Below, one piece after another: positions 5,065 through 58,606 of a DNA stretch of 64,000 nt. The notes under the pieces were generated by a model. That model saw nothing but the letters and a program-made list of their open reading frames with translations, searched no databases and was not told the DNA's origin. The stretch's first letter is position 1, and each line of letters begins with the position of its first letter. The DNA is taken from NCBI RefSeq assembly GCF_054482525.1, contig NZ_CM137006.1. One strand, written 5' to 3'. Made by a program: the position numbers and the translations under genes.

Positions 5065-6537
5065 ATGTCCCGAATGGCAGAACAGCAGCTTTATATACAT
5101 GGTGGTTATACCTCCGCCACCAGCGGTCGCACCTTCGAGACCATTAACCCGGCCAACGGTAACGTGCTGGCGACCGTGCAGGCCGCCGGGCGTGAGGATG
5201 TCGATCGCGCCGTGAAGAGTGCCCAACAAGGGCAAAAAATCTGGGCGGCGATGACCGCTATGGAGCGCTCGCGTATTCTGCGTCGGGCCGTTGATATTCT
5301 GCGTGAACGCAATGACGAACTCGCAAAACTGGAAACCCTCGACACCGGAAAAGCGTATTCGGAAACCTCAACCGTCGATATCGTTACCGGCGCGGACGTG
5401 CTCGAGTACTACGCCGGGCTGATCCCGTCGCTGGAAGGCAGCCAGATCCCATTGCGTGAGACGTCATTTGTTTATACCCGCCGCGAACCGCTGGGCGTAG
5501 TGGCAGGGATTGGCGCATGGAACTACCCGATCCAGATTGCCTTGTGGAAATCCGCACCGGCGCTGGCGGCAGGCAACGCGATGATTTTCAAACCGAGCGA
5601 AGTCACCCCGCTTACCGCGTTAAAGCTGGCTGAAATTTACAGCGAAGCGGGCCTGCCGGACGGTGTATTTAACGTGCTGCCGGGCGTAGGTGCGGAAACC
5701 GGGCAGTATCTGACCGAGCATCCGGGCATTGCCAAAGTGTCATTTACCGGCGGTGTCGCCAGCGGCAAAAAAGTGATGGCTAACTCGGCGGCTTCCTCCC
5801 TGAAAGAAGTGACCATGGAGCTGGGCGGTAAATCACCGCTGATCGTTTTCGACGATGCAGATCTCGATCTCGCCGCTGATATCGCCATGATGGCGAACTT
5901 CTTCAGCTCCGGTCAGGTGTGTACCAACGGCACCCGCGTCTTCGTTCCGGCGAAATGCAAAGCCGCATTTGAACAAAAGATTCTGGCGCGCGTTGAGCGC
6001 ATTCGCGCGGGCGACGTTTTCGATCCGCAAACTAACTTCGGCCCGCTGGTCAGCTTCCCGCATCGCGATAACGTGCTGCGTTACATCGCCAAAGGCAAAG
6101 AGGAAGGCGCGCGCGTACTGTGCGGCGGCGATGTATTGAAAGGCGATGACTTCGATAACGGCGCATGGGTTGCACCGACCGTGTTCACCGATTGCCGCGA
6201 CGAAATGACCATCGTGCGCGAAGAGATCTTCGGTCCGGTGATGTCGCTTCTCACTTATGAATCTGAGGACGAAGTGATTCGCCGCGCCAATGATACCGAC
6301 TACGGCCTGGCGGCGGGCATCGTGACGGCGGACCTGAACCGCGCGCATCGCGTCATTCATCAGCTGGAAGCGGGTATTTGCTGGATCAACACCTGGGGCG
6401 AATCCCCGGCAGAGATGCCCGTTGGCGGCTACAAACACTCCGGCATTGGTCGCGAGAACGGCGTGATGACGCTCCAGAGTTACACCCAAGTGAAGTCCAT
6501 CCAGGTTGAGATGGCTAAATTCCAGTCCATATTCTAA
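5065..6537 (+). CDS. betB: Betaine aldehyde dehydrogenase BetB
   Basis: 490-aa aldehyde dehydrogenase family protein; 13-bp gap after betI. Confidence 0.95.
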
Positions 6538-23128: not shown

Positions 23129-25995
<2,867 letters not shown>

Positions 25996-26135
25996 CTATT
26001 ATTTTAGCCACATTATTAGTAACAATGATAATCTGGCTGTATCGAAAATAATTCTAAACTTTCAGGAGATTTATTATGAATAAACGTATCCTCACGATTG
26101 CGCCATTCTTCTTACCGATATTCTGACACATATCA

Positions 26136-27062
26136 TCAATTTTCGAGTTTTACTCTTTTCTCCACCATAAAATCAATAAAAGCACGAACTTTAGAGGGCA
26201 TTCTCACCCGTGATGAAACATATATATAAAATCCAGGAAATGAAACGGCCCAATCCTCAAGAATCGGCTGTAACTTGCCCGCATTAATATGTTCAGCGAT
26301 TGCAAAATCCAGATGTTGAATGATACCCGTTCCATTCAGCGCCATTCGTATCATGCTTTCGTCATCATTAGAAATATACTTACCTGACACCTCTATTTCG
26401 AACTCTTCATTACCCCCCACAACATTCGAAAACTCCCATGCAGAGAGTGCACCGCTACTTTTATGCCGCAACCGAAGACAATTATGGTTACTCAATTCCT
26501 GAGGCGTTTCAGGAATACCGTGTTCTTTTAAATAATCTGGCGATGCCACAGTAACCAGTTTAATAAGCGGAGAAACAGGAACGGCAGTCATATGCTCATC
26601 CAGTCCTTGCTCAAGACGTATGCCCACATCACAGCCGTCCGCAATAATGTTAGATAAACCGTCATCCATAATGAGTTCTATCTTTGTTTTGGGGTAACGA
26701 GTAAGAAACTCGCCAATATGAGGCTCAACAAGCATCCGTGCTGCAACACGGGAGGAATTTATTCTCAACAGGCCTGTAGGTTCAAGTTGGGTATCACCAA
26801 CATCTTTCAAAGCATCATCAATTTGTCCCAAAGCCGACACCAGCACTTCATACAGACGCTGTCCTTCCTCAGTAAGCGACATATTGCGGGTCGTACGGTA
26901 TATCAGCTTGGTGTTAAGACGTTCCTCAAGAGATTTTAAATTCTGGGACAATGCGGCCCGCGTAATACCCATTTCAGAAGCGGCTCTGGAAAAACTGCCG
27001 GCACGAACAATAAGCGCAAACCAGGCAAGAGAAGGCAAAATTGAAGGCTCTATTTTCATCAT
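26136..27062 (-). CDS. LysR-family transcriptional regulator
   Basis: HTH FALIVRAGSFSRAASEMGITRAALSQNLKSLEE; divergent from the hydrolase gene; start uncertain (Met32/33 of the track ORF). Confidence 0.8.
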   Translation of the reverse strand: MMKIEPSILPSLAWFALIVRAGSFSRAASEMGITRAALSQNLKSLEERLNTKLIYRTTRNMSLTEEGQRLYEVLVSALGQIDDALKDVGDTQLEPTGLLRINSSRVAARMLVEPHIGEFLTRYPKTKIELIMDDGLSNIIADGCDVGIRLEQGLDEHMTAVPVSPLIKLVTVASPDYLKEHGIPETPQELSNHNCLRLRHKSSGALSAWEFSNVVGGNEEFEIEVSGKYISNDDESMIRMALNGTGIIQHLDFAIAEHINAGKLQPILEDWAVSFPGFYIYVSSRVRMPSKVRAFIDFMVEKRVKLEN

Positions 27063-27218
27063 TGTAAACCTTAACTTAACACTGTGATAGATATTAGACC
27101 ATTGATGATAACCAATACAAGTCATACTATTACGCCGTTCTCGATATGAACACAAATGCCAGTTGCGGATAATAGAAATGATATTTAAATCTGTTTAGGC
27201 AAATCCCCGGAGCTTGAA

Positions 27219-28139
27219 ATGAAAACTGTTTCGATAAAACACACTTACTGGGATATAGCTGCTGATATCTATTTCCCTGACGATTTTAATAGTAAAAAAA
27301 AGTATCCTGCCATTATCAGCGCCCATCCAATTGGAAGCTGCAAAGAACAGACATCGGGTAGTGTGTATGGTGCCGCCCTGGCAAAAGCTGGCTTTATCGT
27401 CATTGCTTTTGATGCCAGTTTTCAGGGAAGCAGCGGTGGGGAACCGCGTTATCTGGAAGATCCAACAATGCGAGTAAAAGACTTCAGCATTGTCGTTGAT
27501 TACCTTACCAGCTTACCTTACGTTGATGCCTGGCGTATTGGTGTACTGGGTATTTGTGGTGGAGGTGGATATGCCATTAATGCCGCAATGACAGAACGTC
27601 GAATTAAAGCTATTGGTACTGTCACGGGTGCAAACTACGGGCGTCTTATGCGTGAGGGATTTACAGCGTTTAATCCTATCGGAGCACTCGAAGCAATGGC
27701 GCAACAAAGAACAGACGAAGCTAACGGCGCAAAACTTCGCGTAGATGATTTACTCCCCTCTTCTCCAGATGCAGCTCTTGAAGCGGGATTAACAGAAATA
27801 GACCTTTTTGAAGCCACAGAATATTATCGTTCGCCACGAGGCTGTGCACCTAATGGGGTAAATCGTTCGCTATTCTCACATCAGACTGTTGCCGTGGGTT
27901 GGGATGCATTTCATCTTGCAGAAGTGCTGTTAACTCAACCAATAATGGTTGTGGTGGGCGATAGAGTGGGCGCATTTGGTGCCTACCGTGACGGCTGCGA
28001 AATTATTGGCCGCGCTGCCTCAAAACATAAAGAGCTGGTCGTGGTTGAAGGTTATTCACATTACGACCTGTATGATAAGCCAGAACCGGTGAAACAGGCA
28101 CTCGATAAATTAATTCCTTTTTATAAAACACATTTGTAA
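27219..28139 (+). CDS. Alpha/beta-fold hydrolase, dienelactone-hydrolase-like (GxCxG nucleophile)
   Basis: 306 aa with a GICGGGGYA elbow; no signal peptide. Confidence 0.75.
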   Translation: MKTVSIKHTYWDIAADIYFPDDFNSKKKYPAIISAHPIGSCKEQTSGSVYGAALAKAGFIVIAFDASFQGSSGGEPRYLEDPTMRVKDFSIVVDYLTSLPYVDAWRIGVLGICGGGGYAINAAMTERRIKAIGTVTGANYGRLMREGFTAFNPIGALEAMAQQRTDEANGAKLRVDDLLPSSPDAALEAGLTEIDLFEATEYYRSPRGCAPNGVNRSLFSHQTVAVGWDAFHLAEVLLTQPIMVVVGDRVGAFGAYRDGCEIIGRAASKHKELVVVEGYSHYDLYDKPEPVKQALDKLIPFYKTHL

Positions 28140-28383
28140 TAATTTTACAGGGAGATTCCTTATCTCCCTGACATTTATCCTTTATTGACTACACAACAAT
28201 AATAAAATTACTCAAAAAGAAATTTCATTAAAGAAACAAAAAAGCAGCAACTCAATTATTAAGATTATTAGAACCCCTTTGAAGGGATTATAAATAAAGC
28301 CAGAAATCTTGGTTCCAAAGCTGGCAACAACTAACCAGTTAAAACATACGCATCAAAATCAGATAAACATTTGAGGTATTGTT

Positions 28384-29526
28384 ATGACAAATAAACACCC
28401 ATCATTGTTTTCTCCTTTTATGCTGACAGAAAAAATAAAGCTACGTAATCGTATCGTTATGGCTCCTATGACGACCTGGTCAGCGAATCCTGATGGAACC
28501 ATCTCTGAGCAAGAACTCGAATTTTATAAACGCCGCTCACAAAATGTTGGTTTAGTAATAACAGGATGTACCTATGTCACGCCAAGCGGCATTGGGTTTA
28601 CTCATGAATTTGCCGCATATGACGACCGTTTCATTAACAGCCTTGAAAAGTTAGCAGCGGCAGCCCAAAGTGGGGGTGCTCCGGCTATTTTGCAGATTTT
28701 CCACGCCGGTAATAAAGCCATCCCGGAGCTTGTACCAAATAACGATGTTATTAGTGCCAGCGCATCAAGCGTAAAATCTGGTGACTTTGTGAAGAGAGTG
28801 GTACAAAGCAGGGAAATGACTGAAAACGAAATTCAGGAAACCATTAGAGCATTCGGAGATGTCACAAAAAGGGCGATTAAAGCAGGTTTTGATGGCATTG
28901 AACTTCATGGTGCGCACGGATTCCTTCTACAGAATTTCTTCTCCCCTCTATTTAACCAGCGTAATGACCGATGGGGAGGAGATCTCGAAGGACGTATGCG
29001 CTTCCCGCTGGCCGTATTACAGGAAGTAAAAAATGTAGTCTATGAATATGCGACAAAGCCCTTTGCCATCGGTTACAGAATATCTCCTGAAGAATCTGCA
29101 ACAGGGGGGCTGCGGATAGAGGATACTTATAAACTCCTTGATCGGCTCATTTCATCCGGTATTTCGTATATACATACCTCGCTGGTCAGTATTAACGATA
29201 GCTACCCTGTTGAGTCGCCAAATGGCCCCCGAACTATTGAATTGATTTTAAATCATATTGCAGGCAGAGTGCCGGTAATCGCCGCAGGTAAAATACGCAC
29301 ACCGTCTCAGGCTCAAGAAGCAATTTCCGCTGGCCTGCCACTTGTTGCGATCGGTAAAGGGCTGGTGATAAATCCAGAATGGGTGACTTTAGCTGAATCA
29401 GGTAGAAGCCATGAAATTCAAACAACCCTTAATCCACAACTTGTTCCTGAATTAACCATTCCGGATAAACTATGGGATCAAATTCAGGCATCTAGAGGAA
29501 CTGGCTGGTTTCCGTTAATGGATTAA
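28384..29526 (+). CDS. NADH:flavin oxidoreductase (Old Yellow Enzyme family)
   Basis: 380 aa TIM-barrel flavoenzyme with the HGAHGFLLQNFFSP motif. Confidence 0.85.
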   Translation: MTNKHPSLFSPFMLTEKIKLRNRIVMAPMTTWSANPDGTISEQELEFYKRRSQNVGLVITGCTYVTPSGIGFTHEFAAYDDRFINSLEKLAAAAQSGGAPAILQIFHAGNKAIPELVPNNDVISASASSVKSGDFVKRVVQSREMTENEIQETIRAFGDVTKRAIKAGFDGIELHGAHGFLLQNFFSPLFNQRNDRWGGDLEGRMRFPLAVLQEVKNVVYEYATKPFAIGYRISPEESATGGLRIEDTYKLLDRLISSGISYIHTSLVSINDSYPVESPNGPRTIELILNHIAGRVPVIAAGKIRTPSQAQEAISAGLPLVAIGKGLVINPEWVTLAESGRSHEIQTTLNPQLVPELTIPDKLWDQIQASRGTGWFPLMD

Positions 29527-30946: not shown

Positions 30947-31869
30947 GGGGATGTATCTTCCTGTTCATTTAAGGTCAACTGCCTGACGTTTCTCTCCGAA
31001 TATTCCATTATATTAATGTTGACTTGTTAACCAGGTGCGCCCTGTATGCTGGCATCAACTCTCTTTTAGACTGAACACGCCACTCAGTTTCCTCCCTTTG
31101 CGACGCAGCCTGCATTTACACTCAAACGGTTAAGATGATAAATGTGGTAAATCTGTTGGTACTGACATAAAAACGTTTACGTCACAGGAACGGCCTGATC
31201 CACCGGTAACCCCATCGCCGACGTTCGAGTGCCAGTTAGAGTAACGCGCACAGATGACTGAATGCAGTGCCCTGGCAAAGAGGCCATCGTTCCTGTGACA
31301 ACTGGCAGTCTTCGTTTAACTTCACTTAATTTGGCTCTTAGGGGGCTTACCGGACAGATGACGTACTTACACCTGTTTAATTTTTCATCACTTATTGGGA
31401 TGAACACCCATAACCATTTTGTGCGGCATGTTAATCCATTAAAACACCTTACTGATTGGCAAATCATCTTTAATTATGACTCATGATAGTTTTATATTCT
31501 ATTTCTTATCATTTAAACTTGTTTTTTTACTAGTCCATCACACAACACATTAAGACTATTCCTAACACCTCAGGGCAAAGTTCCTGGCTAATATAAAATG
31601 CAAGTAAGAATTGAACGTTATATTGCCAATAACCTTATGAAACTGAATGTCTTTTTCTTCTTATCAAAAAAGCAATATTTTCATTTTTTGTAAATATTGA
31701 CTTAACCATGGAATTCCTTTTCTGTTCACATATTGACACTCATCAGGAAAAAAACATAAATTTAAACCTAATCGAAATAATTAAAACTTAATCTCGTTTA
31801 ACCTATATTGATATGTGCTACGTATCTTATTTACTTCCGATTTACTAAAGAAACTGAATGTACCTGTAA

Positions 31870-39395: not shown

Positions 39396-39429
39396 GCCCC
39401 GCCAGCTATAATCGCGGGGCTTCGTTTTT
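39396..39429 (+). terminator. Rho-independent terminator after ykgJ
   Basis: GCCCCGC / GCGGGGC stem followed by TTCGTTTTT. Confidence 0.65.
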
Positions 39430-39575
39430 CAGGGATAACAAAACCCGAAACTTCTTCCATCTGCCAGCAACAATGCCTCTTCCTCTATAGTGTTCTCCGG
39501 ATCTACAGCATCCTGAAGTAGCGCGATGTACTCACTAGCTATCTGTTTCAGAAAGTAAAAAGCAATGTTTTTAAC

Positions 39576-39612
39576 CTATAAAAATGGCGCTGTATTTGCG
39601 CCATTTTTATTA
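39576..39612. terminator. Bidirectional terminator between ykgJ and yagU
   Basis: AAAAATGGCGC-TGTATTT-GCGCCATTTTT perfect palindrome with A/T runs. Confidence 0.65.
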
Positions 39613-39621
39613 TTCAATGCA

Positions 39622-45625: not shown

Positions 45626-46819
45626 CTAAAGCGCACCGGCCTTCTGGCGTGCGGTAACAAAGGTCAGTACGCCAGCGCAAAGGAGCAGCACGCTACTCAT
45701 AGCAAACGTGCTCTGCCAGCCAAGGCGGTCAAATACGATGCCTCCTGCTGTTGATCCAAGGGCGATGGAGAGCTGAATCACCGCGACCATGAGCCCGCCT
45801 CCGGCTTCGGCGTTGTCAGGCAACGTACGCGCAATCCATGTCCACCATCCGGTTGGCGCGGCGGTGGCCAGCATGCCCCAGAGTCCTAACAGCAGCGAGA
45901 CCGTCCAGACGTGATGCCCGGTCAGCATCAGACCGATAGCAATGACGGCCATCAGTCCGGGTATGGCCATCAGCGTGGGGTAGAATTTTCTGTTGAGAAA
46001 TGCCGAAACAACCAGCGTGCCAATAAAACCGGCCACGCCGATAATCAGCAAAATCAACGACAAGCCTAAGGAATTAACCCGTGTCACCGACTCCAGAAAC
46101 GGGCGCACATAGGTGAATAGTGCAAACTGCCCCATGAAAAACAGGCAGCAGGCTATCATGCCGACCACAACCATGCGGCGGCTAAATAAGCGGAATACCG
46201 CGCCACATGAAGTGTGGCTTTTATTCGCATCCATGCTTGGCAGGCTGATGCACTGCCAGATAAAGGCGACAACCGCGATGGGCACCAGGCACAAGAAAGC
46301 GCCTCGCCATCCGACCGTAGCCCCCAGATAGCTTCCCAGCGGTGCGGCCACGACCGTCGCCAGCGCATTACCGGCGTTGAAAATTGCCAGCGCACGCGTG
46401 ACCTGATGCTGCGGCACCAGACGAATCGCCGTTGCCGCTGACATCGACCAGAATCCGCCAATAGCCACACCAATCATCGCACGACCGACCATATACATCA
46501 GATAACTGGAAGCCAGCGCAATAATAAGCCCCGATACGGCCATCAGAACCGTCATCCCCAGCAGCAGGAACTTACGATTCATCTTTCCAGCTAGCGTTGA
46601 AAGCGTCAGGCTGGTCAGAACCGCCAGCGCGCCGGAGATAGCAATCCCCTGCCCTGCCAGCCCCTCCGTCACGCCTAAATCGCGGGTAATCGGCGTGAGC
46701 AGGCTGACGGGCATAAATTCAGAAGCAATCAGCACAAACACGCACAGGGTCATGGCAAAAATACCGCCCCAGTATGCGCGCTGATGATGAGGTGATAGTG
46801 TTTGGCTTAGTGTCGACAT
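45626..46819 (-). CDS. MFS transporter (12-TM, efflux-type)
   Basis: 397-aa hydrophobic protein with MFS-like repeats. Confidence 0.85.
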   Translation of the reverse strand: MSTLSQTLSPHHQRAYWGGIFAMTLCVFVLIASEFMPVSLLTPITRDLGVTEGLAGQGIAISGALAVLTSLTLSTLAGKMNRKFLLLGMTVLMAVSGLIIALASSYLMYMVGRAMIGVAIGGFWSMSAATAIRLVPQHQVTRALAIFNAGNALATVVAAPLGSYLGATVGWRGAFLCLVPIAVVAFIWQCISLPSMDANKSHTSCGAVFRLFSRRMVVVGMIACCLFFMGQFALFTYVRPFLESVTRVNSLGLSLILLIIGVAGFIGTLVVSAFLNRKFYPTLMAIPGLMAVIAIGLMLTGHHVWTVSLLLGLWGMLATAAPTGWWTWIARTLPDNAEAGGGLMVAVIQLSIALGSTAGGIVFDRLGWQSTFAMSSVLLLCAGVLTFVTARQKAGAL

Positions 46820-46894: not shown

Positions 46895-48031
46895 TTATTT
46901 CAGTTTGGTCTGGAAAAATTGTTCGAACTTCGCGAAAGGTATTTTTCCGGCCACGTTATCGTACAGGTCCACGTGATTTGCCCCTGGTACCACCACCAGC
47001 TCTTTGTCGTTACTGCCAACCACCTTGTAAGCATCTTCAGCAAAATAGCGTGAATGCGCTTTCTCACCGGTCACAATCAGCGTCGGGATGGTGATTTCAC
47101 TGGCGTAGCTCAACAGCGGCATATTCATAAATGACAGCGGCATCGTTGCCGTCCACGCCCCGGTAGAGTTAACGGAACGTTCGTGGAAGCCGCGCGGCAT
47201 GCGATAGTAGTCAAAGAACTCTTTCAGTACCGGATGAGGATTTGCCGGCAGCGTTTCTGGCAGAATGCGCTCGCCCGCACTGACCTTGCCGTTGCTGTCG
47301 ACATTAATATCATGACCACCGTGAGCGAACGTTCCGCTCTGCGCATCCTTCCAGCGCTGTTCATTCAGATATTGCAGAACGGCACGACGGTCGGCGGTAG
47401 AATAACGGTCTTTGCCATCCCCCACACCATGACCCATCGCCCGGCTCATGTCATACATCACGCTGGTAGCTACCGCTTTAACGCGGGTATCCATCGCCAC
47501 GTCGTTCAGCGCCATGCCGCCCCAGCCACAAATACCGAGCAGCCCGATACGGTTGCGATCTACCTCTTTTTGCAGCCCTAAGAAATCCACCGCCGCGCTG
47601 AAATCTTCAGTGTTGATATCCGGTGAGGCGACGTTTCGCGGATAGCCGCCGCTTTCCCCGGTGTAAGAAGGATCGAACGCCAGGGTAACAAACCCTCGTT
47701 CCGCCAGCGTCTGCGCATACAAGCCGCTGGATTGCTCTTTCACCGCGCCAAATGGCCCACTGACCGCAATCGCCGCCAGCTTGCGATCGCCACGGTCTTT
47801 AGGCAGGTAAAGATCGCCCACTAAGGTGATGCCATATCGGTTCGGGAACGAGACTTTACGGTGATCGACTTTCTGGCTCTCGGCGAACGTTTTATCCCAT
47901 TTATCTGCCATGGACACAGGGGCATTAGGATTGGTTGAATCAGCATAACTCATTGTCGTGACTCCACTTAATGATGCGAAAAGCAGCATGGTCGGCATCG
48001 CGGTTTTTAGCGTGCGGGTGAAGGCTTTCAT
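46895..48031 (-). CDS. Secreted alpha/beta-fold hydrolase (GxCxG), paralog of the 27219-28139 gene
   Basis: GICGWGGMALN elbow; N-terminal signal peptide ...LLFASLSGVTTMSYA; start may be 48052. Confidence 0.75.
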   Translation of the reverse strand: MKAFTRTLKTAMPTMLLFASLSGVTTMSYADSTNPNAPVSMADKWDKTFAESQKVDHRKVSFPNRYGITLVGDLYLPKDRGDRKLAAIAVSGPFGAVKEQSSGLYAQTLAERGFVTLAFDPSYTGESGGYPRNVASPDINTEDFSAAVDFLGLQKEVDRNRIGLLGICGWGGMALNDVAMDTRVKAVATSVMYDMSRAMGHGVGDGKDRYSTADRRAVLQYLNEQRWKDAQSGTFAHGGHDINVDSNGKVSAGERILPETLPANPHPVLKEFFDYYRMPRGFHERSVNSTGAWTATMPLSFMNMPLLSYASEITIPTLIVTGEKAHSRYFAEDAYKVVGSNDKELVVVPGANHVDLYDNVAGKIPFAKFEQFFQTKLK

Positions 48032-48218
48032 AAAAATCCCCATAAAAAACAACAGAGAGATACAGGTTTCCGACGGACAACGCTGCGGTGCTTTACTTTG
48101 ATGGGGTCATTATAGTGAGCAGAATTAGTGCTGATTAGGGGGCGATTAATGCTAAGATTAATACCATATTGTTATAAATTAATGCGGAGATTGCCGGCAT
48201 GAAGGGGGGGATGTTTCA

Positions 48219-49103
48219 ATGGCGAAAAGGGAGAACTACAACGAGCTGTACCTGTTTATGCAGGTGGTGCGGGAAGGCAGCTTTACCGCAGCGGCTCAGC
48301 GGCTGGGTCTTGCTCAGTCAGGAGTCAGCCGTTCTGTTCGCGAGCTTGAAGAAAGGCTGGGCGTCCAGCTGCTAGTGCGCACCACGCGTAAACTGTCGCT
48401 GACACAAGCAGGCGAGCAGCTCTACCAGAAGACGGCATCTGGATTTGAAATGTTAGATCTTGGGCTTGCCACGCTGGCGCACTATCGAGAGACGCCCTCC
48501 GGCACGGTGCGTATCAATGCCAGCCAGCACGCGATTGATAAATGCCTGCTGCCAAAGCTGGCGGTATTTAAACAGAGATATCCTGATATCCGGCTTGAAC
48601 TGATAAATGAGAGCCGGTTCGTCGATATCATCGAGGAAAGATTCGATGCAGGTGTCCGCCTGGGGCCTGAAGTCGGCCAGGGTATGGTCGCGGTACGCAT
48701 CACGCCCGATATGGAGATGGCAATTGTGGGGACTCCGGAACATTTTCGTCGTTATGGTTTTCCGCAAACCCCGGCGGATTTAAAGGCGCATCCCTGTATC
48801 GCCTATCAGTTTGCCGACGGCAGCGTATACCAGTGGGAACTCAATCAGGATGATAAAAAAATCACTCATCGCCCTGAAGGGCAATGGGCCCTATCCGACA
48901 GCTATATGGAAGCAGAAGCCGCCCGGCTGGGCCTCGGATTGGCCTATGTTCCTGTTGAACTGGTCGCGGATGATTTAGAACACGGTAACCTTATCAGGGT
49001 GTTGCAGCGTTACAGCCTGCGAATGGAGGGATTGTTTCTCTATTACCCTCATCGCAACGTCTCCCCCGCTCTGCGGATGGTCATTGATACATTGAAAATC
49101 TGA
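48219..49103 (+). CDS. LysR-family transcriptional regulator
   Basis: 294 aa; HTH VVREGSFTAAAQRLGLAQSGVSRSVRELEE; divergent from the hydrolase gene. Confidence 0.85.
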   Translation: MAKRENYNELYLFMQVVREGSFTAAAQRLGLAQSGVSRSVRELEERLGVQLLVRTTRKLSLTQAGEQLYQKTASGFEMLDLGLATLAHYRETPSGTVRINASQHAIDKCLLPKLAVFKQRYPDIRLELINESRFVDIIEERFDAGVRLGPEVGQGMVAVRITPDMEMAIVGTPEHFRRYGFPQTPADLKAHPCIAYQFADGSVYQWELNQDDKKITHRPEGQWALSDSYMEAEAARLGLGLAYVPVELVADDLEHGNLIRVLQRYSLRMEGLFLYYPHRNVSPALRMVIDTLKI

Positions 49104-50794: not shown

Positions 50795-50962
50795 GCATTT
50801 TCAGAAATGGGAGGCTGGGAGTCTATCGAAATGGTTCGTCGATATGCTCACCTCGCGCCTAATCACCTTACCGAACACGCACGGCAAATAGACTCAGTCC
50901 TGAACCCATCGGTCCCAAATTTGTCCCAGTCAAAAAAAAAGGAAGGTACTAATTATGTGTAA
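50795..50962 (+). pseudogene. 3' fragment of a tyrosine recombinase (phage/P4-type integrase) gene
   Basis: Encodes ...[24 protein letters not shown], the integrase C-terminal motif carrying the catalytic Tyr; no upstream integrase body. Confidence 0.6.
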
Positions 50963-51174
50963 CTTATTGATTTAAATGGTGCGATAATAGGAATATAACA
51001 CACCACATATATTCTTTGATAAATATGACTATTTTCTTGTTTCATCTTTATAAATGCCCCCTTTTGTGCCCCCACCTTGTTTTTCATGCGACTCGATGAG
51101 ACTTTCATCGAGTCGTTAATCTCATCAAATTCTTCACGTATCGTGGAAACCTTCGCAGATCTCCATCCCCTCAC
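50953..51174 (-). CDS. Hypothetical small protein coupled to the toxin gene
   Basis: 73-aa ORF whose ATG overlaps the toxin stop (ATGA). Confidence 0.3.
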
Positions 51175-51539
51175 AGCCGTGATCGGCTAAGAACAATATT
51201 ACTTACCTCCCTGTAAGAACACCGGCTCATCAGCCCGCACGCTTTCCTGGCTTGAAGAATGTCTGTCGCAGTCAAATATGGTGCTTGTACCTGAGAGGTA
51301 AATCCATTGCGATCAATACGAACTAACTCATATTTCTCTACCAGAAAGTTAACGGCATTAGCCAGAGTGATACCGGCATCGATATGCTCCTTTATAACGG
51401 TTTCATCGCTAAAAGGTGTGTCGCTTAGCATTAGGCCATAGTGCTGCTCAAGCAGACGAGTAAGTAACATTTGCCAGATTGCAACGGGCGACAGACAGGG
51501 CTTCGCCGCCCGCGAAATTGTAGCAGGTAGATTTTTCAT
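51171..51539 (-). CDS. CbtA/YeeV/YkfI-family toxin (cytoskeleton-targeting type IV TA toxin)
   Basis: [36 protein letters not shown]... is collinear with CbtA; ATGA overlap with the antitoxin stop. Confidence 0.85.
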
Positions 51540-51877
51540 GTTTGCTCTCGTGAAATTTGTTTGCGCTGAGGGGGATAAATGGCGATGTATACGTAGCCGC
51601 AACTACCAAGGGTATCGGCTTCGCAGGTGAAACCGTTGTGGTACAGGGTGACACAGTGGGCATGGCGGGGATTCATTTCACCAGTGGTCAGCATCGATTC
51701 CATCTGACTGATAAAATGTGGAAATACGACATCCAACTTCAGGCTTTCGGCATCACTAAACTTACCGGTGATACTTGCCCGGTCAGCCAGATAGTGCAGC
51801 CGGTTGCCCTCCTGCACCAGACGTGCTCCCAGGCACGGCGTGATATCCCGCTGCAGGCCCCATGTGGGGTTGCTCAT
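51536..51877 (-). CDS. CbeA/YeeU/YfjZ-family antitoxin
   Basis: ...[20 protein letters not shown]...[10 protein letters not shown] matches the YeeU family. Confidence 0.85.
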
Positions 51878-51894
51878 TTATAACCTCTTTATTG

Positions 51895-52116
51895 TCAGTT
51901 CAGGGTAATACTCACCAGACAGGTATAAGGTCCGTTGCGATCCTGGCGGCGTTCGACGTATACCGCCAGCACACTGGAAATGTCAGGAACCACCTTAACG
52001 GTGTATTGACAGACACTGCCATGCCACTGGTATCTGCCAGTGCAGAATCGAACAATGCGGGAGGCCGGATGCTGACGGTAAATCGTCATCGCCAGGCGTT
52101 TACTGATAATTTTCAT
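51895..52116 (-). CDS. DUF987 protein (YeeT/YkfH family)
   Basis: MKIISKRLAMTIYRQHPASRIVRFCTGRYQWHGSVC... Confidence 0.75.
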   Translation of the reverse strand: MKIISKRLAMTIYRQHPASRIVRFCTGRYQWHGSVCQYTVKVVPDISSVLAVYVERRQDRNGPYTCLVSITLN

Positions 52117-52124
52117 GTAATACC

Positions 52125-52604
52125 TCAAAGCAGACCATGTTCAGCGAACGACAATATCTGCGTACCACCGACGATAAGGTGGTCGAGCACCCGGATCTCC
52201 ACCAGCATCAGTGCATGTAACAGTCGTTGAGTGATAGCCTTGTCGGCCTGGCTTGGAGTCACTTCTCCGGACGGGTGGTTATGGGCAAATATCACCGCCG
52301 CCGCATTAAAGTACAGCGCGCGTTTCACCACCTCGCGAGGATGAACCTCAGTGTGACTGATGGTGCCGGTAAAGAGCGTTTCGTGGGCAAGCAGCTGGTT
52401 CTGGTTATTGAGGTACAACACGACAAACACTTCGCGCTCAAGGGGGCCCATTTTCAGCCTGAGCCAGTCGCGGGCAGCCTGAGTCGAGGTGAATGCCACA
52501 CCCGGTTCTAGCAAGTGCTGGTCAAGCAGAACCAAGGCTCGCTTAATGGTACGCAGTGCTGGTAACGGCAGTTCAGGTGTAAACATAGTCAGTTGTTTCG
52601 CCAT
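52125..52604 (-). CDS. RadC-like JAB-domain protein (YeeS/YkfG/YfjY family)
   Basis: HNHPSGEVTPSQAD JAMM-like motif. Confidence 0.85.
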   Translation of the reverse strand: MAKQLTMFTPELPLPALRTIKRALVLLDQHLLEPGVAFTSTQAARDWLRLKMGPLEREVFVVLYLNNQNQLLAHETLFTGTISHTEVHPREVVKRALYFNAAAVIFAHNHPSGEVTPSQADKAITQRLLHALMLVEIRVLDHLIVGGTQILSFAEHGLL

Positions 52605-52978
52605 AGCAAATATCCTTAATTAAAGGTGGTGAGAATGACACTGGATTCGGCACGACAGGCGTGATGGTCGTATTCGAGTAGGAAGATGGTAATATGATTG
52701 CGGAATGCATGAGGAAACGAAGCCAGCAATGACCCAGTGACTCACACCCAATCACAGTGTTAAAAATAAAAAAATCCCGCAATCCAGCGAGGATTGCATT
52801 GGGATAATATCTATCTGTAATTATTTAGAAAAAATGTTTTTTTTCTGAGGTCTATTATAAATTTTTTTCGTTCAGAAACTTCTCGGATATGATCATCTGC
52901 TGAGTACCAAGAACGGACATTGTACCCAATAGTGAGTTAATCATTGGAACGTTGATCACCCCAATTGAAAATTTTCAC

Positions 52979-53006
52979 AATATCCAATATCCAATATCCA
53001 ATATAT
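52979..53006. repeat. Tandem 7-bp repeat CAATATC x about 4
   Basis: CACAATATCCAATATCCAATATCCAATATATC, about 27 bp left of the IS end. Confidence 0.7.
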
Positions 53007-53032
53007 CGGTGTAGAGGGCTTCTCTCTTAAAC

Positions 53033-54230
53033 TGATCCTACCCGCGTAATGTGGACACGCTCCTAAGCGAGATTCTGGTTTTCAAACTGTTTCGGGCTGA
53101 GGCCGCCATAATCGCTGTGACGCCGCCAGCGATTGTAATCGCACTTAATCCGCCGTCCGCATGATTTCCCGGCTGATAAAGCGTTCTCCGTGGATACACT
53201 CGACTTTTAACGAGTGTAAGAAGCTTTCCGCACAGGCATTATCATAACAGCAACCTTTTGCGCTCATGCTGCCATGCAGATTATGTCGTTTCAGCAGAGC
53301 CTGATAATCCGCTGAGCAGTACTGCCCGCCACGGTCGGTGTGAATTCGCCGCCACAGCGCCATCTGCAGTGCATCACAGGCAAGTTCTGCCGTTATTTGC
53401 GAGGACACCAACTAGCCAATAATAGCACGCGACCACCAGTCTATAACCACGGCAAAGTATAACAAGCTTTCATCGATGCGAAGGTACGTGATGTCACCAG
53501 CCCACTTCTGGTCCGAGCCACTAGATCTGAAGTCCTGCTTCAGCAGATTCTCCGGCACTGGCTGGTCGTGAGCACAGTAGATTAACGGGCTGAACAGACG
53601 TGAGGTTTTTGCCCGCAGGCCCTGACGACGCGAACTGTTGCTATCGTTTTGATGTTGTATTCCGGCGGCTCGTCTGCAAGACGAGCCGCACCATAACGCT
53701 GTTTTGCCTCAACGAATACCTTACAGACAGCTTCATTGAAGACGCACCGGAACTGTTGCCGATGGCTCAGTTGGGGACGACGCAGACACCAGGTATACCA
53801 GCAGCTGTGCGCCACGCACAGCACCCGACACATAGCTTTGATACTGAACTCAACCTGATATTTTTCGATAAAGATATACTTCATTTCAGGCGCTACGCGA
53901 AGTATGTCGCGCCCTTTTGGAGAATAGCCAACTCATTATCCCGCTCAGCCAGTTGACGTTTGAGGCAGGCAATCTCCGCTGCTTGTGCGCTCTCTCTCAG
54001 AGGATATTGTCTGGTGCAGTTGTTTGTAGAGCTGGGAATCGTAAAGGCTGAGTTCACGGGCGGTAGTGGCCACACCGAGACGTTCGGCCAACTTAAGGGC
54101 TTCTTCACGAAATTCAGGCGTGTGTTGTTTGCGTGACTTTTGTTGATTGATGCTGATTTTGTCATGTGAGCTACCTCTGATTGAGAGTTTACTCGCTTAG
54201 TCCCGTGTCCACTATTGGTGGGTAGGATCA
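53033..54230 (-). mobile_element. Degraded IS3-family insertion sequence (IS3-like) with frameshifted orfA/orfB
   Basis: Terminal inverted repeats TGATCCTACCCGCGTAATGTGGAC (left) and TGATCCTACCCACCAATAGTGGAC (right, reverse complement); minus-strand ORF fragments match IS3 InsE (…[23 protein letters not shown]) and InsF (MKYIFIEK..., ...[14 protein letters not shown]...CCYDNA...), split by frameshifts; no target-site duplication. Confidence 0.8.
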
Positions 54231-54579
54231 TTATTGATCAAAGATCAAGATGTGCAAAAATTCCCAAGTAAAGCCTTATCTGAACCTTCCGTTTTGTTAG
54301 CACATCTGACATTATTATTCAGTCAAATCCCTTCAGTTGATTGAGTTCAAAGGCGGTAGCTATGCTGATTTGCATTACTGTAAAACTTTTAAAGCAGAGG
54401 TTTATATAGAATTGCTCTGTTGAATAAATTAGTAGGTTCACATGGATTTTGAGTTCACCAAGCATGACAACTTGCGTTCTTCAAGCGATCCTGAGAAGCC
54501 TATTATATTAGTGTACAAGATGCCTCACGTGGCACCACTGAATTTTACATTAGACTCTATCCATTAAAACGATAAAATT

Positions 54580-56313
54580 ATGTACATAGCAAAAATTAAA
54601 TTTACAAATTTCAAATCATTCAAAGAGATGTCTTTTGAGTGCAATGATAAATTCAACATAATTGTTGGTGAAAATAATATTGGTAAAAGCACATTATTTG
54701 AGGGGGTAAGTTTATGGAAATATGCTTATGACAACCTTATTCAAGAAAAAAACAAAAACAAATTCTACAAAGCTTCAACTAACTACTACATTACCTATTC
54801 TACACTCGATCAAATAAGACTTGTTGACGATATTGATATTTTTAACGACCCAAAGAATAGCTCCGCATCAATATGCATTACAATTAAAGATGAACAAAAT
54901 GAATTTGATTTAGAGATTAGATTTGAAAAGCCAGGGATTAAAAATTCATACTTACGGATATTTAATAGCAATGGTTCTGATAATGACACACAGTTTTCAA
55001 ACTTTGAACGATTCTCAAACTATATAAAAGAAAAGGATTGCACTCTAAAAGATGCCATTTACATTTACCAAACAAGACCAATATCAACTATTTTTAGAGA
55101 TGAGCCATTTTACAATAATGCGCAGATAGAGAAAAAAATAAATATTGGAAAGTCACATGATGTCTTAAGGAATAAAATATTAAAAACCGAAAATACTCAA
55201 GCCACAAGGGTTGCACAAAAATTTGAAAATCTTGAGATTCGCCTACAAAAAGTCCTTGGTGAAAACTATATCTTAAAATTTAAGAATAGAAATCGAATCG
55301 ATGATGAGTATGTTAAAATAACTGCAACAAAGGAAAACGGGAAAGAATTGGAAATATCACTTATGGGTAGTGGTTTTTTGCAAGTCTTAGAGATATTTTC
55401 AACAATTGAGTATATGGAAAAGAATTCAACCGGTATTAACCTCATTCTTATCGATGAGCCTGATTCACATATCCACTCAAATTTACAAGCAAATTTAATT
55501 GACGAACTAAAGCAACAAACAGCATGTCAAATTTTTGTCATAACACATAATGACAGACTAACATCAAAAGCTAATGAAGGTGAGCTTTTTTATCTAAATC
55601 AGATAGTTAAGGATCTTGGTTTATTGTCTCACCTTGAAATATCTGATTATTCAAAAGTTAAAGATGGTCTAGCTAATGTACTAACAGCTATAAATGATGG
55701 AGATGAAACACCCATTGTTATAACTGAAGGAAAAACGGACCAGAAAATTTTAACAACTGCTTGGGAAAAGCTAAACCCAGGAACTCCTATGCCTTTTAAA
55801 ATAATTTCATCCGGCATTCAAATTGAAGAGGAAAAAAGAACTGGGTGCGCAGAGGCAGTTAGAAGATCTTTAGAATACATTTCAACATTAACTGATAGAA
55901 CAATTATCGGTTTATTTGATAATGATCGGGAGGGAAATGAGCAGTTCAAAGGATTAAATCGTTCTATTTTTGAACCTCATGACCTGCAAAATAACTCCCG
56001 AAAACATCAGATAAAAAATATCTATGGGCTTATTCTTCCCGTTCCTGTGCATAGAGAACGTTTTGTACAAAACAATTCTTTAACGCAGCGTTACTTCGTA
56101 ATTGAACAATATTTCCAAGATGAAATATTACTACAGCATAACATGAAAGGTGAGTCAATATTAGGTACTGAGGTATTTTTTGTTAATGACTCAAGAAAGA
56201 ATGAGTTTTCAGAGTCAACCAATGACCTTCCGGTAGAATGCTTTGGGGATTTTAGTATTTTATTCGATAAAATTTCCGATTTATTGGCTAACAATAGACC
56301 AGAAAACACTTGA
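54580..56313 (+). CDS. OLD-family protein: N-terminal ABC-type ATPase fused to a C-terminal TOPRIM nuclease-like domain (P2 Old / Gabija GajA / PARIS-like); candidate anti-phage defense protein
   Basis: 577 aa; Walker A GENNIGKST (aa 30-38), Walker B LILIDEPD (aa 288-295), H-loop ITHND; TOPRIM-like ITEGKTD (E383) and FDNDREG (D447, D449); strongly AT-rich codon usage. Confidence 0.7.
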   Translation: MYIAKIKFTNFKSFKEMSFECNDKFNIIVGENNIGKSTLFEGVSLWKYAYDNLIQEKNKNKFYKASTNYYITYSTLDQIRLVDDIDIFNDPKNSSASICITIKDEQNEFDLEIRFEKPGIKNSYLRIFNSNGSDNDTQFSNFERFSNYIKEKDCTLKDAIYIYQTRPISTIFRDEPFYNNAQIEKKINIGKSHDVLRNKILKTENTQATRVAQKFENLEIRLQKVLGENYILKFKNRNRIDDEYVKITATKENGKELEISLMGSGFLQVLEIFSTIEYMEKNSTGINLILIDEPDSHIHSNLQANLIDELKQQTACQIFVITHNDRLTSKANEGELFYLNQIVKDLGLLSHLEISDYSKVKDGLANVLTAINDGDETPIVITEGKTDQKILTTAWEKLNPGTPMPFKIISSGIQIEEEKRTGCAEAVRRSLEYISTLTDRTIIGLFDNDREGNEQFKGLNRSIFEPHDLQNNSRKHQIKNIYGLILPVPVHRERFVQNNSLTQRYFVIEQYFQDEILLQHNMKGESILGTEVFFVNDSRKNEFSESTNDLPVECFGDFSILFDKISDLLANNRPENT

Positions 56314-57088
56314 TACTGTACTGCATTTTCCATATCGAGCTAAAACGGACCATTCGCTTTTAAAGTGATTACGGCATACGGGACAGATTTTCCTTAAAGC
56401 AAACGTCTCCTTCACGCCCTGAGACATTCGACATTAAGTAAGAACGGGGGTGCGCCTCGAGTGCCAGCAAATATTTTGCTTCGTCGTAGCGGGTTCTGGT
56501 CATCCAGCAGCTGTAAATGATCCTTATCCATTTATACGCCAGAGCCCAAATGGCTGATTGATGCGATTTTCCTTTTCTTCGCAGCTCTTACTAATAAAGT
56601 CTGGCCCAGAATGATGAGTTAATCGTCTTTGCAGCCCATTCCACGAATGTCTGTCGGACGAGCTCCGCACATTGCCAACATCAGTGTACCCAAGATTTCT
56701 GGCCGCTTTGTTCTGTCACCGGAAAAATACCTGCGTAGTTTTGAATTTCTTCAGCGCAGTTTAACTGGTCACGGTTACTTGAAGAAAGAAACTGACCACT
56801 GCGCTCGTCGTTCGGAAGTGCCAGGGCTATCGGTGGATATTAAGGGAAACCTGACAGCCGGAGGTAATCAGGGTTATTAATGCCGTCAGTGTGGGCCCCG
56901 CTACCAGTGAAACACTAATGTATTGATTAAGTTTCATATTCTTCCTTAATGAAAATAAGCATGTTTTCTTTTGCTAAATCAGTCGTCGTTGGCGATGAAA
57001 CCGGCTCACACATCACGCGATTGTTAAATGAAAAAGCCCCTATTGCGTGAGCAACAGGGGCTATATTTATTTTGTGTCTATAGAGGCA

Positions 57089-57499
57089 TCAGTAACCAGT
57101 TTTAACCTTGTACATCAATAGTGTTTTACTGCCCCGGACAATTTTCACATACAGGGCATTATCTTTCGTGCCTCGCACAAAACCGGCCTGCACATCGCCC
57201 TTACAGTCACCACCGTCGTAAGGAATATTGACACCTGTCTGACGCACCAGATCAATAACCCCGAAGCTTAAGTCCTCACAGGCCGGGCCCGGCAGGTCCT
57301 GAATCAGGGCAAATTTATGGTCGTCGCTGACACCGGTCAGTGAGCACATGGAGGTATTGATGTCGTTTCCCTGGCACCAGTACTCCTGACCGGGATTATC
57401 TTTATCCATCAGACTTGCCGGAAGCTGAGCGGCACCGGCACTGAAGGCGGCAAGTGACAGAATGAGGGCGGGTACAGCAGAGGTCATTATTTTCAGCAT
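57089..57499 (-). CDS. Secreted 4-Cys protein of unknown function (island-associated)
   Basis: Signal peptide MLKIMTSAVPALILSLAAFSAGAA; motif W-C-x9-C...C...C. Confidence 0.6.
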   Translation of the reverse strand: MLKIMTSAVPALILSLAAFSAGAAQLPASLMDKDNPGQEYWCQGNDINTSMCSLTGVSDDHKFALIQDLPGPACEDLSFGVIDLVRQTGVNIPYDGGDCKGDVQAGFVRGTKDNALYVKIVRGSKTLLMYKVKTGY

Positions 57500-57565
57500 G
57501 GTTTTCTTCCTGAATTAATCCAGCCCGCTGTCGGGCAAAATGAGGGAGGTTGGTATCGGGTATTA

Positions 57566-58003: not shown

Positions 58004-58044
58004 TACGTTGGTCCTTAACAGAGAAAGAATCAGGTAGCAGTCAT

Positions 58045-58581: not shown

Positions 58582-58606
58582 TGTTTTTCCTTCTTAACAG
58601 AGGTAA

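Follow-up and report, generated by a model that had tools for sequence, protein, structure and literature searches.

In a 64,000-nt stretch of the E. coli chromosome (here the window; it matches strains PCN033 and 19KM1776 with 100% identity), two genes for Cys-nucleophile alpha/beta hydrolases, H1 and H2, each stand divergent to a gene for a LysR-type regulator, LysR1 and LysR2, respectively (Table 1). The two divergent pairs had been described in a first-pass annotation and are indeed present, and it was postulated there that they are copies of a single sensing-and-detoxifying cassette. This raises the question of whether the likeness of the two modules reflects the duplication of a cassette or has some other origin. 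We consider it likely that these are two independent LysR-controlled modules, neither of which was derived from the other, and that their enzymes share one old Cys-hydrolase family.

Table 1. Features of the two modules and their surroundings, in window coordinates
Feature	Position	Strand	Basis or remark
LysR-A, third LysR regulator, adjoins module 1	25042-25935	-	42% identity to LysR2
LysR1, LysR-type regulator of module 1, 308 aa	26136-27062	-	HTH_1 and LysR_substrate domains; RefSeq WP_001307603.1
Candidate LysR1 operator box TTGTAAACCTTAACTTAAC, GTAAR-N7/8-YTTAC dyad	27062-27080	.	conservation
Predicted weak sigma-70 promoter of H1 (TTGATG, 17 nt, TACTAT)	27102-27130	+	sequence reading
H1, Cys-nucleophile alpha/beta hydrolase, 306 aa, predicted cytoplasmic	27219-28139	+	homology to YcjY (PDB 5xb6)
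Old-yellow-enzyme (OYE)-type NADH flavin oxidoreductase, 3' of H1	28384-29526	+	Oxidored_FMN, E 3.5e-77
MFS transporter (DHA1/NepI-like), 397 aa, downstream of H2	45626-46819	-	MFS_1, E 1e-38
H2, Cys-nucleophile alpha/beta hydrolase, predicted exported, 378-aa precursor	46895-48031	-	PA2218 (PDB 2hdw), E 4e-124
Sec-type signal peptide of H2, codons 1-30, predicted cleavage after SYA	47942-48031	-	rule-based check
Predicted H2 promoter core (-10 TATAAT, 48109-48114; weak -35 TAATCA, 48132-48137)	48109-48138	-	conservation
Candidate LysR2 recognition site TATAACAATATGGTATTAAT, T-N11-A dyad	48157-48176	-	conserved in 4 genera
LysR2, LysR-type regulator of module 2, 294 aa	48219-49103	+	HTH_1 and LysR_substrate domains

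Module 1 consists of the divergent LysR1 and H1 genes and probably includes the OYE-type reductase gene downstream. This gene shares the low GC3 of LysR1 and H1, lies inside the same 6.3-kb block whose deletion has left K-12 without module 1, and may be co-regulated with H1. The start of LysR1 at 27062 is both the conserved one and that of RefSeq; the start at 27155 given in the first-pass annotation is that of the longest ORF. Together with yahB and LysR-A, the regulators of the two modules bring the number of LysR-type genes in the window to four.

Two hydrolases of the YcjY/PA2218 family

The nucleophile-elbow strings by which the two hydrolases had originally been linked are both found, VLGICGGGGYAI in H1 and LLGICGWGGMA in H2. 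Furthermore, the relationship extends beyond generic motifs, since the pairwise alignment of H1 and H2 runs from end to end (32% identity, E 1e-42), and both enzymes carry the motif G-I-C-G-x-G-G. H1 is 41% identical to YcjY (5xb6; E 1.3e-66) and also matches 2hdw (E 5.6e-44), and H2 matches 5xb6 (E 4.3e-43) as well as 2hdw, with the value given in Table 1; it is this full-length homology to both structures that places H1 and H2 in the YcjY/PA2218 family. PA2218 of Pseudomonas aeruginosa, deposited as a structural-genomics "hypothetical protein", is the closest solved relative of H2, aligning over the whole of the mature enzyme with an identical GICGWGG elbow.

Members of the family share a G-[IVM]-C-[AG]-x-[GA]-G elbow, a C-terminal H-x-D-L-Y-D, and the motifs KEQ and SGG. 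The cysteine is present in 106 of 106 sequences and the histidine in 104, and the K, E and Q residues are kept in 103-105 of the same 106. In H1 these two residues are Cys113 (codon 27555-27557) and His281 (28059-28061); in H2 they are Cys168 (47528-47530) and His353 (46973-46975). The nucleophile is the sole cysteine of mature H2, in contrast to the four cysteines of H1. In alignments with PET46 and an MHETase, the family cysteine falls on the serine of their G-L-S-M-G-G. Where serine esterases have their aspartate, H1 has D, H2 has E, and YcjY has S, and no one residue stood out as the catalytic acid. An AlphaFold model of H1, built from a 10-sequence alignment, had a mean pLDDT of 66 and left the cap domain unresolved; a Foldseek search with this model returned 5xb6 and 2hdw and then, outside the family, generic serine esterases and thioesterases.

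Three subfamilies can be distinguished, with mean identities of 40.7% between H1 and YcjY, 34.1% between H2 and YcjY, and 32.3% between H1 and H2; by this measure, H1-type and H2-type enzymes are the most distant pair. Judged by these alignments, then, H1 and H2 are distant cousins in one old Cys alpha/beta hydrolase family that is functionally unassigned. For YcjY, the literature searched contained nothing functional beyond regulon lists, and nothing was found there on PA2218, on the entries 5xb6 and 2hdw, or on the five RefSeq accessions.

Better known enzymes were also compared. Dienelactone hydrolase (PF01738), with its Cys-His-Asp triad, shares the elbow cysteine nucleophile within an alpha/beta hydrolase fold. 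With the Pfam DLH model, for which the cut-off is 21 bits, H1 scores 23.3 bits over its N-terminal half only (profile positions 12-123 of 217), and H2, at 18.7 bits, falls under the cut-off; the Peptidase_S15, Hydrolase_4 and PETase-like models equal or beat the DLH score. The best NCBIfam match for both H1 (E 1.5e-20) and H2 (E 7e-17) is the model NF047920 for UilS, a cytoplasmic, quorum-quenching AHL lactonase of Serratia marcescens that was first annotated as a dienelactone hydrolase (PMC11633161). Membership in the UilS family was rejected, as H1 (74.1 bits) and H2 (62.0 bits) score far below the cut-off of 400 bits and match the model mostly in the N-terminal half.

Export of H2 and its transporter

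Three starts can be considered for H2: 48052, which gives the longest ORF, the conserved ATG at 48031, and the RefSeq start at 47953 (M34). The ATG at 48031, together with a GGGGA Shine-Dalgarno sequence 5 nt upstream, is kept in Klebsiella, Rahnella and Yersinia, and 378 aa is the length annotated for the majority of homologues in the databases; homologues of this length with 85-98% identity occur across the Enterobacterales. Translation from this ATG is needed for the predicted signal peptide, MKAFTRTLKTAMPTMLLFASLSGVTTMSYA, which is followed by DSTNPN. The N-terminus, MKAFTRTLK-TAMPTMLLFASLSGVTTM-SYA with the cut before D, has three K/R in residues 1-10 and a Kyte-Doolittle maximum of 1.76. 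In a rule-based check, it thus shows the positive n-region, hydrophobic h-region and small-x-small site of a Sec type I signal, and the same check found no lipobox and no twin arginine. The signal peptide is kept in four genera, and within the first 30 codons, the changes between E. coli and Klebsiella are 13 synonymous to 5 non-synonymous. The RefSeq start at 47953 drops the signal peptide; as a consequence, the protein is mis-filed as cytoplasmic.

In H1, no signal peptide and no hydrophobic N-terminus were seen on inspection. These predictions agree with the earlier claim that one hydrolase is cytoplasmic and the other exported. Among more distant H2-type relatives, Sec signals are predicted in Gastranaerophilales and Fretibacterium and a twin-arginine (Tat) signal in Bosea. 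The conserved leader of H2 was also searched for an RNA element, but the consensus structure obtained (-4 kcal/mol, one covarying pair) was unconvincing, and Rfam gave no match.

The first-pass annotation had also linked an MFS gene to the second module, and here conservation bears it out. In Klebsiella, Rahnella and Yersinia, LysR2 counterparts (294 aa, 86-89% identity) lie divergent to H2, and MFS counterparts of 395-397 aa always adjoin it, so that LysR-H2-MFS forms a conserved three-gene unit with varying flanking genes. In Bosea, the order is LysR, then divergently MFS-H2, with a homologous MFS gene standing before the H2-type gene. The transporter belongs to MFS_1 and has NepI and the SotB and Cmr-type pumps among its relatives. 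Its identification as the purine ribonucleoside efflux pump NepI (NF007578) was rejected, with 292.7 bits against a cut-off of 584. The labels "exporter" and "detoxifying", as applied to the modules, are guesses.

Regulators, operators and the origin of the modules

A duplication of one regulator-hydrolase cassette, after which the copies diverged and one gained a signal peptide and an exporter, would leave the same compounds to be detoxified in two compartments. This idea draws on the full-length homology of the hydrolases with their shared catalytic motif, on the divergent LysR gene in both modules, on the differing compartments predicted for H1 and H2, and on the finding that the NCBIfam YafC model is the best match for both regulators. 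A direct comparison of the two gives a different picture. LysR1 (HTH_1 E 3.4e-19, LysR_substrate E 2.5e-29) and LysR2 (E 1.4e-23 and 4.7e-35, respectively) are 29% identical, with a phmmer score of 139 bits, and the Neisseria regulator CrgA (3hhg) scores about as high against them, at 132 and 138 bits. Consequently, their similarity is the background of their LysR subgroup, and LysR2 is much nearer to LysR-A (242 bits) and PgrR (213 bits, 41% identity) than to LysR1. PgrR in turn scores 312 bits with LysR-A and is 31% identical to LysR1. The paralogy originally claimed for the modules therefore holds for the hydrolases, which are homologous over their full length, but not for the regulators, which are no closer to each other than to CrgA.

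The remaining evidence also runs against a duplicated cassette. H1 and H2 come from the most distant pair of subfamilies, and codon composition differs sharply, with a GC3 of 0.34-0.38 in module 1 versus 0.59-0.65 in module 2. The closer relatives of each module lie in other phyla or genera rather than in this genome: H1 homologues with 75-82% identity are spread across phyla, and in Burkholderia, Stenotrophomonas, Myxococcus, Paraburkholderia and Caballeronia, LysR1 counterparts (51-57% identity) are paired divergently with hydrolases of H1 type. In addition, export signals characterise the H2 subfamily as a whole, with a Tat signal in Bosea, and do not represent a local gain.

Shared operator motifs, which the first-pass annotation proposed to look for in the two divergent promoter regions, were not found. 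Conserved boxes were derived from related loci and then searched for across the window. The candidate LysR1 box abuts the regulator start codon in eight modules of distant genera whose regulator is of LysR1 type. From this box, it is about 66 bp downstream to the predicted transcription start of H1, whose promoter (TTGATG/TACTAT) scores below the threshold of a consensus scan. In module 2, the candidate LysR2 site is centred about 64 bp upstream of the predicted start and is unique in the window even when three mismatches are allowed (0 expected). A second conserved box, CTAATCAGCACT (48127-48138), which has a single mismatch-free occurrence in the window, overlaps the H2 promoter core, and this core is kept in Klebsiella, Rahnella and Yersinia. 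No box of one intergenic region matched the other region (up to two mismatches for CTAATCAGCACT, up to three for the other two), and consensus promoter and terminator scans of both regions gave nothing above shuffled expectation.

A cassette duplication thus seems quite improbable, and a recent one is contradicted. Both modules might nevertheless go back to a LysR-hydrolase pair of great age, with later divergence and rapid evolution of LysR1, since all four regulator types found beside these hydrolases belong to one broad LysR subgroup and the YafC model is the best match for all three that were tested. One K-12 gene, yagP, was considered as a remnant of LysR2 and rejected, since it is just 27% identical to LysR2.

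Might the pairing instead be coincidental in both modules, with other genes as the possible targets of the regulators? No regulator family is commoner in bacteria than LysR, and the window alone has four members. H1-type genes without a LysR neighbour occur, for example, in Pseudomonas sp. N3-W and Mycobacterium, and regulators of AraC type are found at Bacteroidota loci. However, a given regulator lineage keeps its divergent position beside a given hydrolase type across classes, at 9 loci for LysR1-type and 10 for PgrR-type regulators and in four genera for LysR2, and the shared intergenic regions contain conserved boxes. Furthermore, genomic SELEX has located PgrR between ycjY and ycjZ, and ycjY is among the genes listed for the PgrR regulon (PMC5934670). 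Coincidence in both modules is accordingly highly improbable.

A census of 79 loci drawn from about 100,000 species found a divergent LysR gene at approximately 22 of them. In this census, LysR1-type regulators accompany H1 alone or a YcjY-H1 tandem, PgrR-type regulators accompany this tandem or YcjY alone, and LysR-A-type regulators accompany MFS-H2 in Bosea, where the relatives of LysR-A that are paired with this operon have 56-57% identity. One type of hydrolase operon is thus served by differing LysR lineages, depending on the bacterium, which argues that regulators and hydrolases have not been co-inherited as pairs. The likeness of modules 1 and 2 thus probably reflects a family-wide habit of pairing with a divergent LysR gene, not the result of a cassette duplication in this genome, and two LysR-controlled hydrolase operons per genome are routine. 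At Bacteroidota loci, AraC-type regulators take the place of LysR.

PgrR-YcjY and the possible function of the modules

The arrangement of both intergenic regions resembles that of classical LysR activators (for example, those of the subgroup of CrgA, AphB and AaeR). The domains are the same and the target is divergent, and each region has a candidate T-N11-A-type dyad near -65 (27062-27080, at 8 loci; 48157-48176, at 4 loci); a second putative site would lie over a weak -35, and the regulator's own promoter would be overlapped. In the mechanism that we infer from this geometry, each regulator would bind the dyad some 65 bp upstream of the hydrolase promoter and, upon sensing a small-molecule inducer, would activate that promoter, whose -35 is weak; since the dyad would also cover the promoter or leader of the regulator gene, autoregulation may follow. 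The substrate of H1 and H2 would be a carboxylic ester, lactone or thioester, hydrolysed by way of a Cys-His acyl-enzyme intermediate; H2 would act in the periplasm after export via its Sec signal peptide, and the inner-membrane MFS protein would move the substrate or the product of H2.

A third module of this kind is present in E. coli, namely pgrR (ycjZ) and ycjY of K-12. Its plan is the same, with a LysR gene divergent to that of a 306-aa hydrolase bearing a G-I-C-x-G-x-G elbow, and YcjY is closer to H1 than H2 is. However, YcjY represents another subfamily, the operator is an ATCAT-N5-ATGAT dyad plus GTCTAATC repeats, and the genes downstream in K-12 differ (ymjD, ymjC, mpaA). The pair is also distributed differently: ycjY-pgrR is a core pair present in 5218 of 5426 E. 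coli genomes (96%), and modules 1 and 2, found in 2104 (39%) and 912 (17%) of these genomes, respectively, are independent accessory genes.

PgrR has been described as a regulator of peptidoglycan recycling, with a regulon that holds ycjY-ymjDC-mpaA (PMC5934670). By analogy with this operon, which includes the murein peptide amidase gene mpaA, and given that ycjY adjoins mpaA, ycjG and mppA in K-12, it could be argued that modules 1 and 2 serve the recycling of peptidoglycan peptides. Yet ymjC, which lies between ycjY and mpaA in K-12, is a 48-residue N-terminal remnant of an NmrA-like reductase, and this reductase comes after these hydrolases in 11 other loci. It therefore seems that a deletion produced the ycjY-mpaA link, and if the K-12 ycjY operon is such a remnant, as it appears to be, any inference of function from the neighbouring mpaA is weakened. 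In addition, the genes that recur beside family members encode NAD(P)H-binding reductases, SDR, AKR, FMN reductase, OYE and cupin proteins; no murein enzyme was found among them. A role in peptidoglycan recycling is thus unlikely.

Another suggestion is tentative, and we place limited confidence in it. In this model of a widespread enzyme family, H1-type and YcjY-type enzymes form a tandem pair that would work together with an NmrA-like NAD(P)H reductase, the substrate being a small-molecule ester or lactone; the H2 branch is a periplasmic version with a dedicated MFS transporter; and the accepted link of PgrR-YcjY to peptidoglycan recycling in K-12 is a by-product of a deletion that fused ycjY and mpaA.

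E. coli can carry three members of one structurally solved enzyme family that lacks an assigned function, and the absence of two of the three from K-12 helps to explain why they have gone unstudied. Given their conservation, both the H2-MFS-LysR unit and the H1-type enzyme would make good targets for substrate discovery.

An exact second copy of the LysR1-type box is present at 31688-31706, upstream of ecpR. This copy is probably unrelated to LysR1, because K-12, which has no LysR1, retains the site with one mismatch.

Gene layout and predicted cellular location of the hydrolases

The window is E. coli chromosome sequence that matches strains PCN033 and 19KM1776 at 100% identity, with the gene order yahB, bet, ykgEFG, rcl, fdeC, ykgMO, ecp, paoABCD and an integrative island adjoining thrW and proA. 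The first-pass annotation had described two paralogous modules in it, each with a GxCxG hydrolase (H1 or H2) divergently paired with a LysR regulator (LysR1 or LysR2), and had postulated a duplicated cassette with different compartment targeting. The gene layout of both modules agrees with the divergent pairing, and the nucleophile-elbow motifs it quoted were located in H1 and H2. The reported proximity of the second copy to an MFS transporter also holds: the MFS gene lies just downstream of H2, and the order LysR2-H2-MFS is maintained amid differing flanks in three other genera (Klebsiella, Rahnella and Yersinia). The transporter resembles NepI, but its score against that model (293 bits) is under the curated cut-off of 584 bits. 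RefSeq starts it at 46753 (375 aa); a start at 46819 would agree with the 395-397 aa of the counterparts in these genera.

Features of the two modules
Feature	Position	Strand	Remark
LysR-A	25042-25935		third LysR regulator of this comparison
LysR1	26136-27062	-	module 1 regulator
H1 promoter (inferred, weak)	27102-27130		TTGATG-17-TACTAT; from spacing; LysR1 box ~66 bp upstream of inferred start
H1	27219-28139	+	module 1 alpha/beta hydrolase, 306 aa
MFS transporter	45626-46819	-	directly downstream of H2
H2	46895-48031	-	module 2 hydrolase
H2 promoter (inferred)	-10 at 48109-48114		perfect -10 TATAAT; poor -35 TAATCA, 17 bp upstream; from conservation and spacing
LysR2	48219-49103	+	module 2 regulator

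The RefSeq start of H2 (WP_122986710.1) is M34, at 47953, which removes the signal peptide. The ATG at 48031 is the better start, since it has a GGGGA Shine-Dalgarno sequence 5 nt upstream, is kept in Klebsiella, Rahnella and Yersinia, gives the 378 aa found in most of the best 120 database homologues, and opens a conserved Sec signal. A longer TTG start is not conserved in the same three genera. From ATG 48031, codons 1-30 encode MKAFTRTLKTAMPTMLLFASLSGVTTMSYA, followed by D, a textbook Sec signal of 30 residues that is conserved at the protein level, codon changes between E. coli and Klebsiella being mostly synonymous. Distant H2-type proteins carry Sec signals (Gastranaerophilales, Fretibacterium) or a twin-arginine signal (RRDLMKL, in Bosea), and thus export is a trait of the whole H2 subfamily. 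Furthermore, the nucleophile is the only cysteine of H2, against four cysteines in H1, counts that fit a periplasmic and a cytoplasmic enzyme, respectively. The proposed difference in compartment is supported.

Elsewhere in the window, the region at ~50800-62200, past LysR2, holds an SDR fragment, integrase fragments and a "tRNA-Ser" annotation that is oddly long at 112 nt. It continues into an island that carries trbL, trbJ and traJ together with a HigA antitoxin and a retron system (RT, PtuA ATPase, HNH), before thrW and proA; in K-12, this position is filled by the CP4-6 prophage. Between ykgJ and yagU, at 39416-39616 (-), an Rfam IS009 match of 186 bits marks a candidate small RNA.

Relationship between the two modules

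H1 and H2 align end to end, well past the nucleophile elbow, with 32% identity (E 1e-42), and the two regulators are 29% identical. Homology of the hydrolases, as the first-pass annotation had it, is thus confirmed. However, six lines of evidence argue against its duplicated cassette. First, the H1-type and H2-type enzymes are the most distant pair of three subfamilies (mean identities: H1-H2, 32%; H2-YcjY, 34%; H1-YcjY, 41%), and both have much closer relatives outside this genome than each other. Second, LysR1 scores 139 bits against LysR2, which on a single scoring scale is level with the scores of the two regulators against Neisseria CrgA (132 and 138 bits); LysR2 scores 242 bits against LysR-A and 213 bits against PgrR, the regulator divergent to ycjY in K-12. 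Third, inheritance does not keep particular regulators with particular enzymes: tandem YcjY-type and H1-type genes lie behind a single divergent LysR in many bacteria, the regulator being of the PgrR type at nine such loci and of the LysR1 type at three, and in Bosea an MFS-H2-type operon pairs with a LysR-A-type regulator. Fourth, the search for a shared operator motif found none, the boxes of each intergenic region having no match in the other. Fifth, GC3 is 0.34-0.38 for LysR1, H1 and the downstream old-yellow-enzyme-type reductase gene (OYE), and 0.59-0.65 for MFS, H2 and LysR2; LysR1-H1-OYE has the appearance of a block acquired from a donor of low GC content. Finally, a count over 5426 complete E. 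coli genomes gives 2104 with module 1, 912 with module 2 and 5218 with pgrR-ycjY. Modules 1 and 2 are independent accessory modules, and pgrR-ycjY is a core module. The earlier interpretation is therefore partly supported, in homology, divergence, compartments and the MFS-H2 link, but not in duplication.

What the modules have in common is the family habit of a divergent LysR, present at ~22 of 79 loci retained from a census of one genome per species (~100,000 species scanned); at Bacteroidota loci, an AraC-type regulator replaces it. A very old ancestral LysR-hydrolase pair behind both modules is possible, since all regulators tested belong to a single broad subgroup whose best model is YafC. 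Such a pair, even if real, would characterise the family as a whole and would not make the modules duplicates within this genome.

In K-12, 23130-29434 (6.3 kb; both AKR genes, LysR-A, LysR1, H1 and OYE) is missing, and the annotated pseudogene ykgP corresponds to the final 29 codons of OYE, all that K-12 retains of the block; consequently, K-12 carries a deletion. The AKR and LysR-A genes of the window have ~51% GC. Beside paoD, the place of MFS-H2-LysR2 is taken in K-12 by yagP and the CP4-6 prophage; yagP was rejected as a counterpart of LysR2, being a different LysR fragment (27% identity).

The enzyme family and its gene neighbours

The genes of both modules belong to known kinds, the operons to those under LysR control and the enzymes to the YcjY/PA2218 hydrolase family, and their interest is low to modest, lying chiefly in an enzyme family without an assigned function. 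The closest solved relative of H1 is E. coli YcjY (5xb6; E 1e-66, 41% identity) and that of H2 is P. aeruginosa PA2218 (2hdw; E 4e-124); a literature search on these two found no function for either. Hydrolases of the census loci sort into H1-type, YcjY-type, H2-type and more distant groups. Of 106 family sequences, all have the cysteine of G-[IVM]-C-[AG]-x-[GA]-G and 104 have His281. The motifs KEQ and SGG, two arginines and a YY pair show almost no variation either. This cysteine aligns with the serine of G-L-S-M-G-G in PET46 and an MHETase. A fold search with a query model of only pLDDT 66 ranked 5xb6 and 2hdw first, followed by carboxylesterases and thioesterases of the serine type (PET46, DcsB, GrgF, TTL lipase, feruloyl esterases). 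No catalytic acid was identified, the position aligned with the Asp of serine esterases being D in H1, E in H2 and S in YcjY. H1 lies narrowly above the Pfam DLH threshold and H2 below it, and the best NCBIfam match, the UilS AHL lactonase, scores far under its cut-off. The enzymes are predicted to hydrolyse an ester, a lactone or a thioester via a thioacyl-enzyme intermediate.

H1-type proteins of E. coli are 75-82% identical to those of Burkholderia, Cupriavidus, Pseudomonas, Stenotrophomonas, Mycobacterium, Rhodococcus, Propionispora and Nitrospira. Conservation this unusually tight, together with a patchy distribution, suggests that an enzyme under strong constraint has spread horizontally. 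For H2, identities to proteins across Enterobacterales are 85-98%.

NAD(P)H-binding NmrA-like reductases occur in 11 loci, mostly directly downstream of the H1-type gene; other recurrent neighbours are genes for SDR, AKR, FMN reductase and cupin proteins and, in gut anaerobes, for a hexapeptide acetyltransferase. The OYE reductase and two AKR genes border H1 in the window, a neighbourhood in which small compounds with carbonyl or ester groups could be metabolised, so the detoxifying role once proposed is a plausible candidate. Across Proteobacteria and Bacteroidota, YcjY-type and H1-type genes are very often arranged as a tandem within a single operon (L015, L016, L019, L021-L023, L025-L030, L033, L038, L040, L045), and cooperation between the two paralogues is suggested.

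The only published functional link is that of PgrR-YcjY to "peptidoglycan recycling" (PMC5934670). However, K-12 ymjC, between ycjY and mpaA (5681-5863 of the ycjY locus, L003), encodes the N-terminal 48 residues of the NmrA-like reductase that accompanies YcjY-type and H1-type hydrolases at the 11 other loci, and is 67% identical to the gene of Pseudocitrobacter, where the order is PgrR<->YcjY-H1-type-reductase. Given this remnant and this order, the K-12 ycjY-mpaA operon looks like a deletion derivative that would have lost the H1-type paralogue and the reductase, and the remnant weakens the peptidoglycan link.

Candidate operators and a proposed mechanism

Loci with a LysR1-type regulator have in common TTGTAAA-N6-CTTAAC beside the regulator start codon (27062-27080 in the window), and the boxes common to module 2 loci are TATAACAATATGGTATTAAT (48157-48176) and CTAATCAGCACT (48127-48138). 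The CTAATCAGCACT box overlaps the poor -35 of the putative H2 promoter, and the T-N11-A dyad at 48157-48176 is centred ~64 bp upstream of the inferred H2 start. A consensus promoter scan of both intergenic regions gave no result above chance. Read from conservation and spacing, the operator and promoter assignments of both modules would have classical LysR activator geometry. In the proposed mechanism, the LysR regulator would bind near -65 and over the -35 and, once bound, would repress its own divergent gene; inducer binding would then activate the enzyme gene. H1 would work in the cytoplasm, H2 would be exported, and MFS might carry the substrate or product of H2 over the inner membrane, inward or outward.

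Within the inferred 5' leader of H2 mRNA (48046-48108), a block, ACCGCAGCGTTGTCCGTCGGAAACCTGTATCT, is kept in four genera; folding it gave nothing convincing as an RNA structure, and Rfam had no match. A second exact LysR1-type box, TTGTAAATATTGACTTAAC, lies at 31688-31706, ~230 bp upstream of ecpR. This box is also kept, with one mismatch, in K-12, which is without LysR1, and it is probably a coincidence or part of ecpR regulation.
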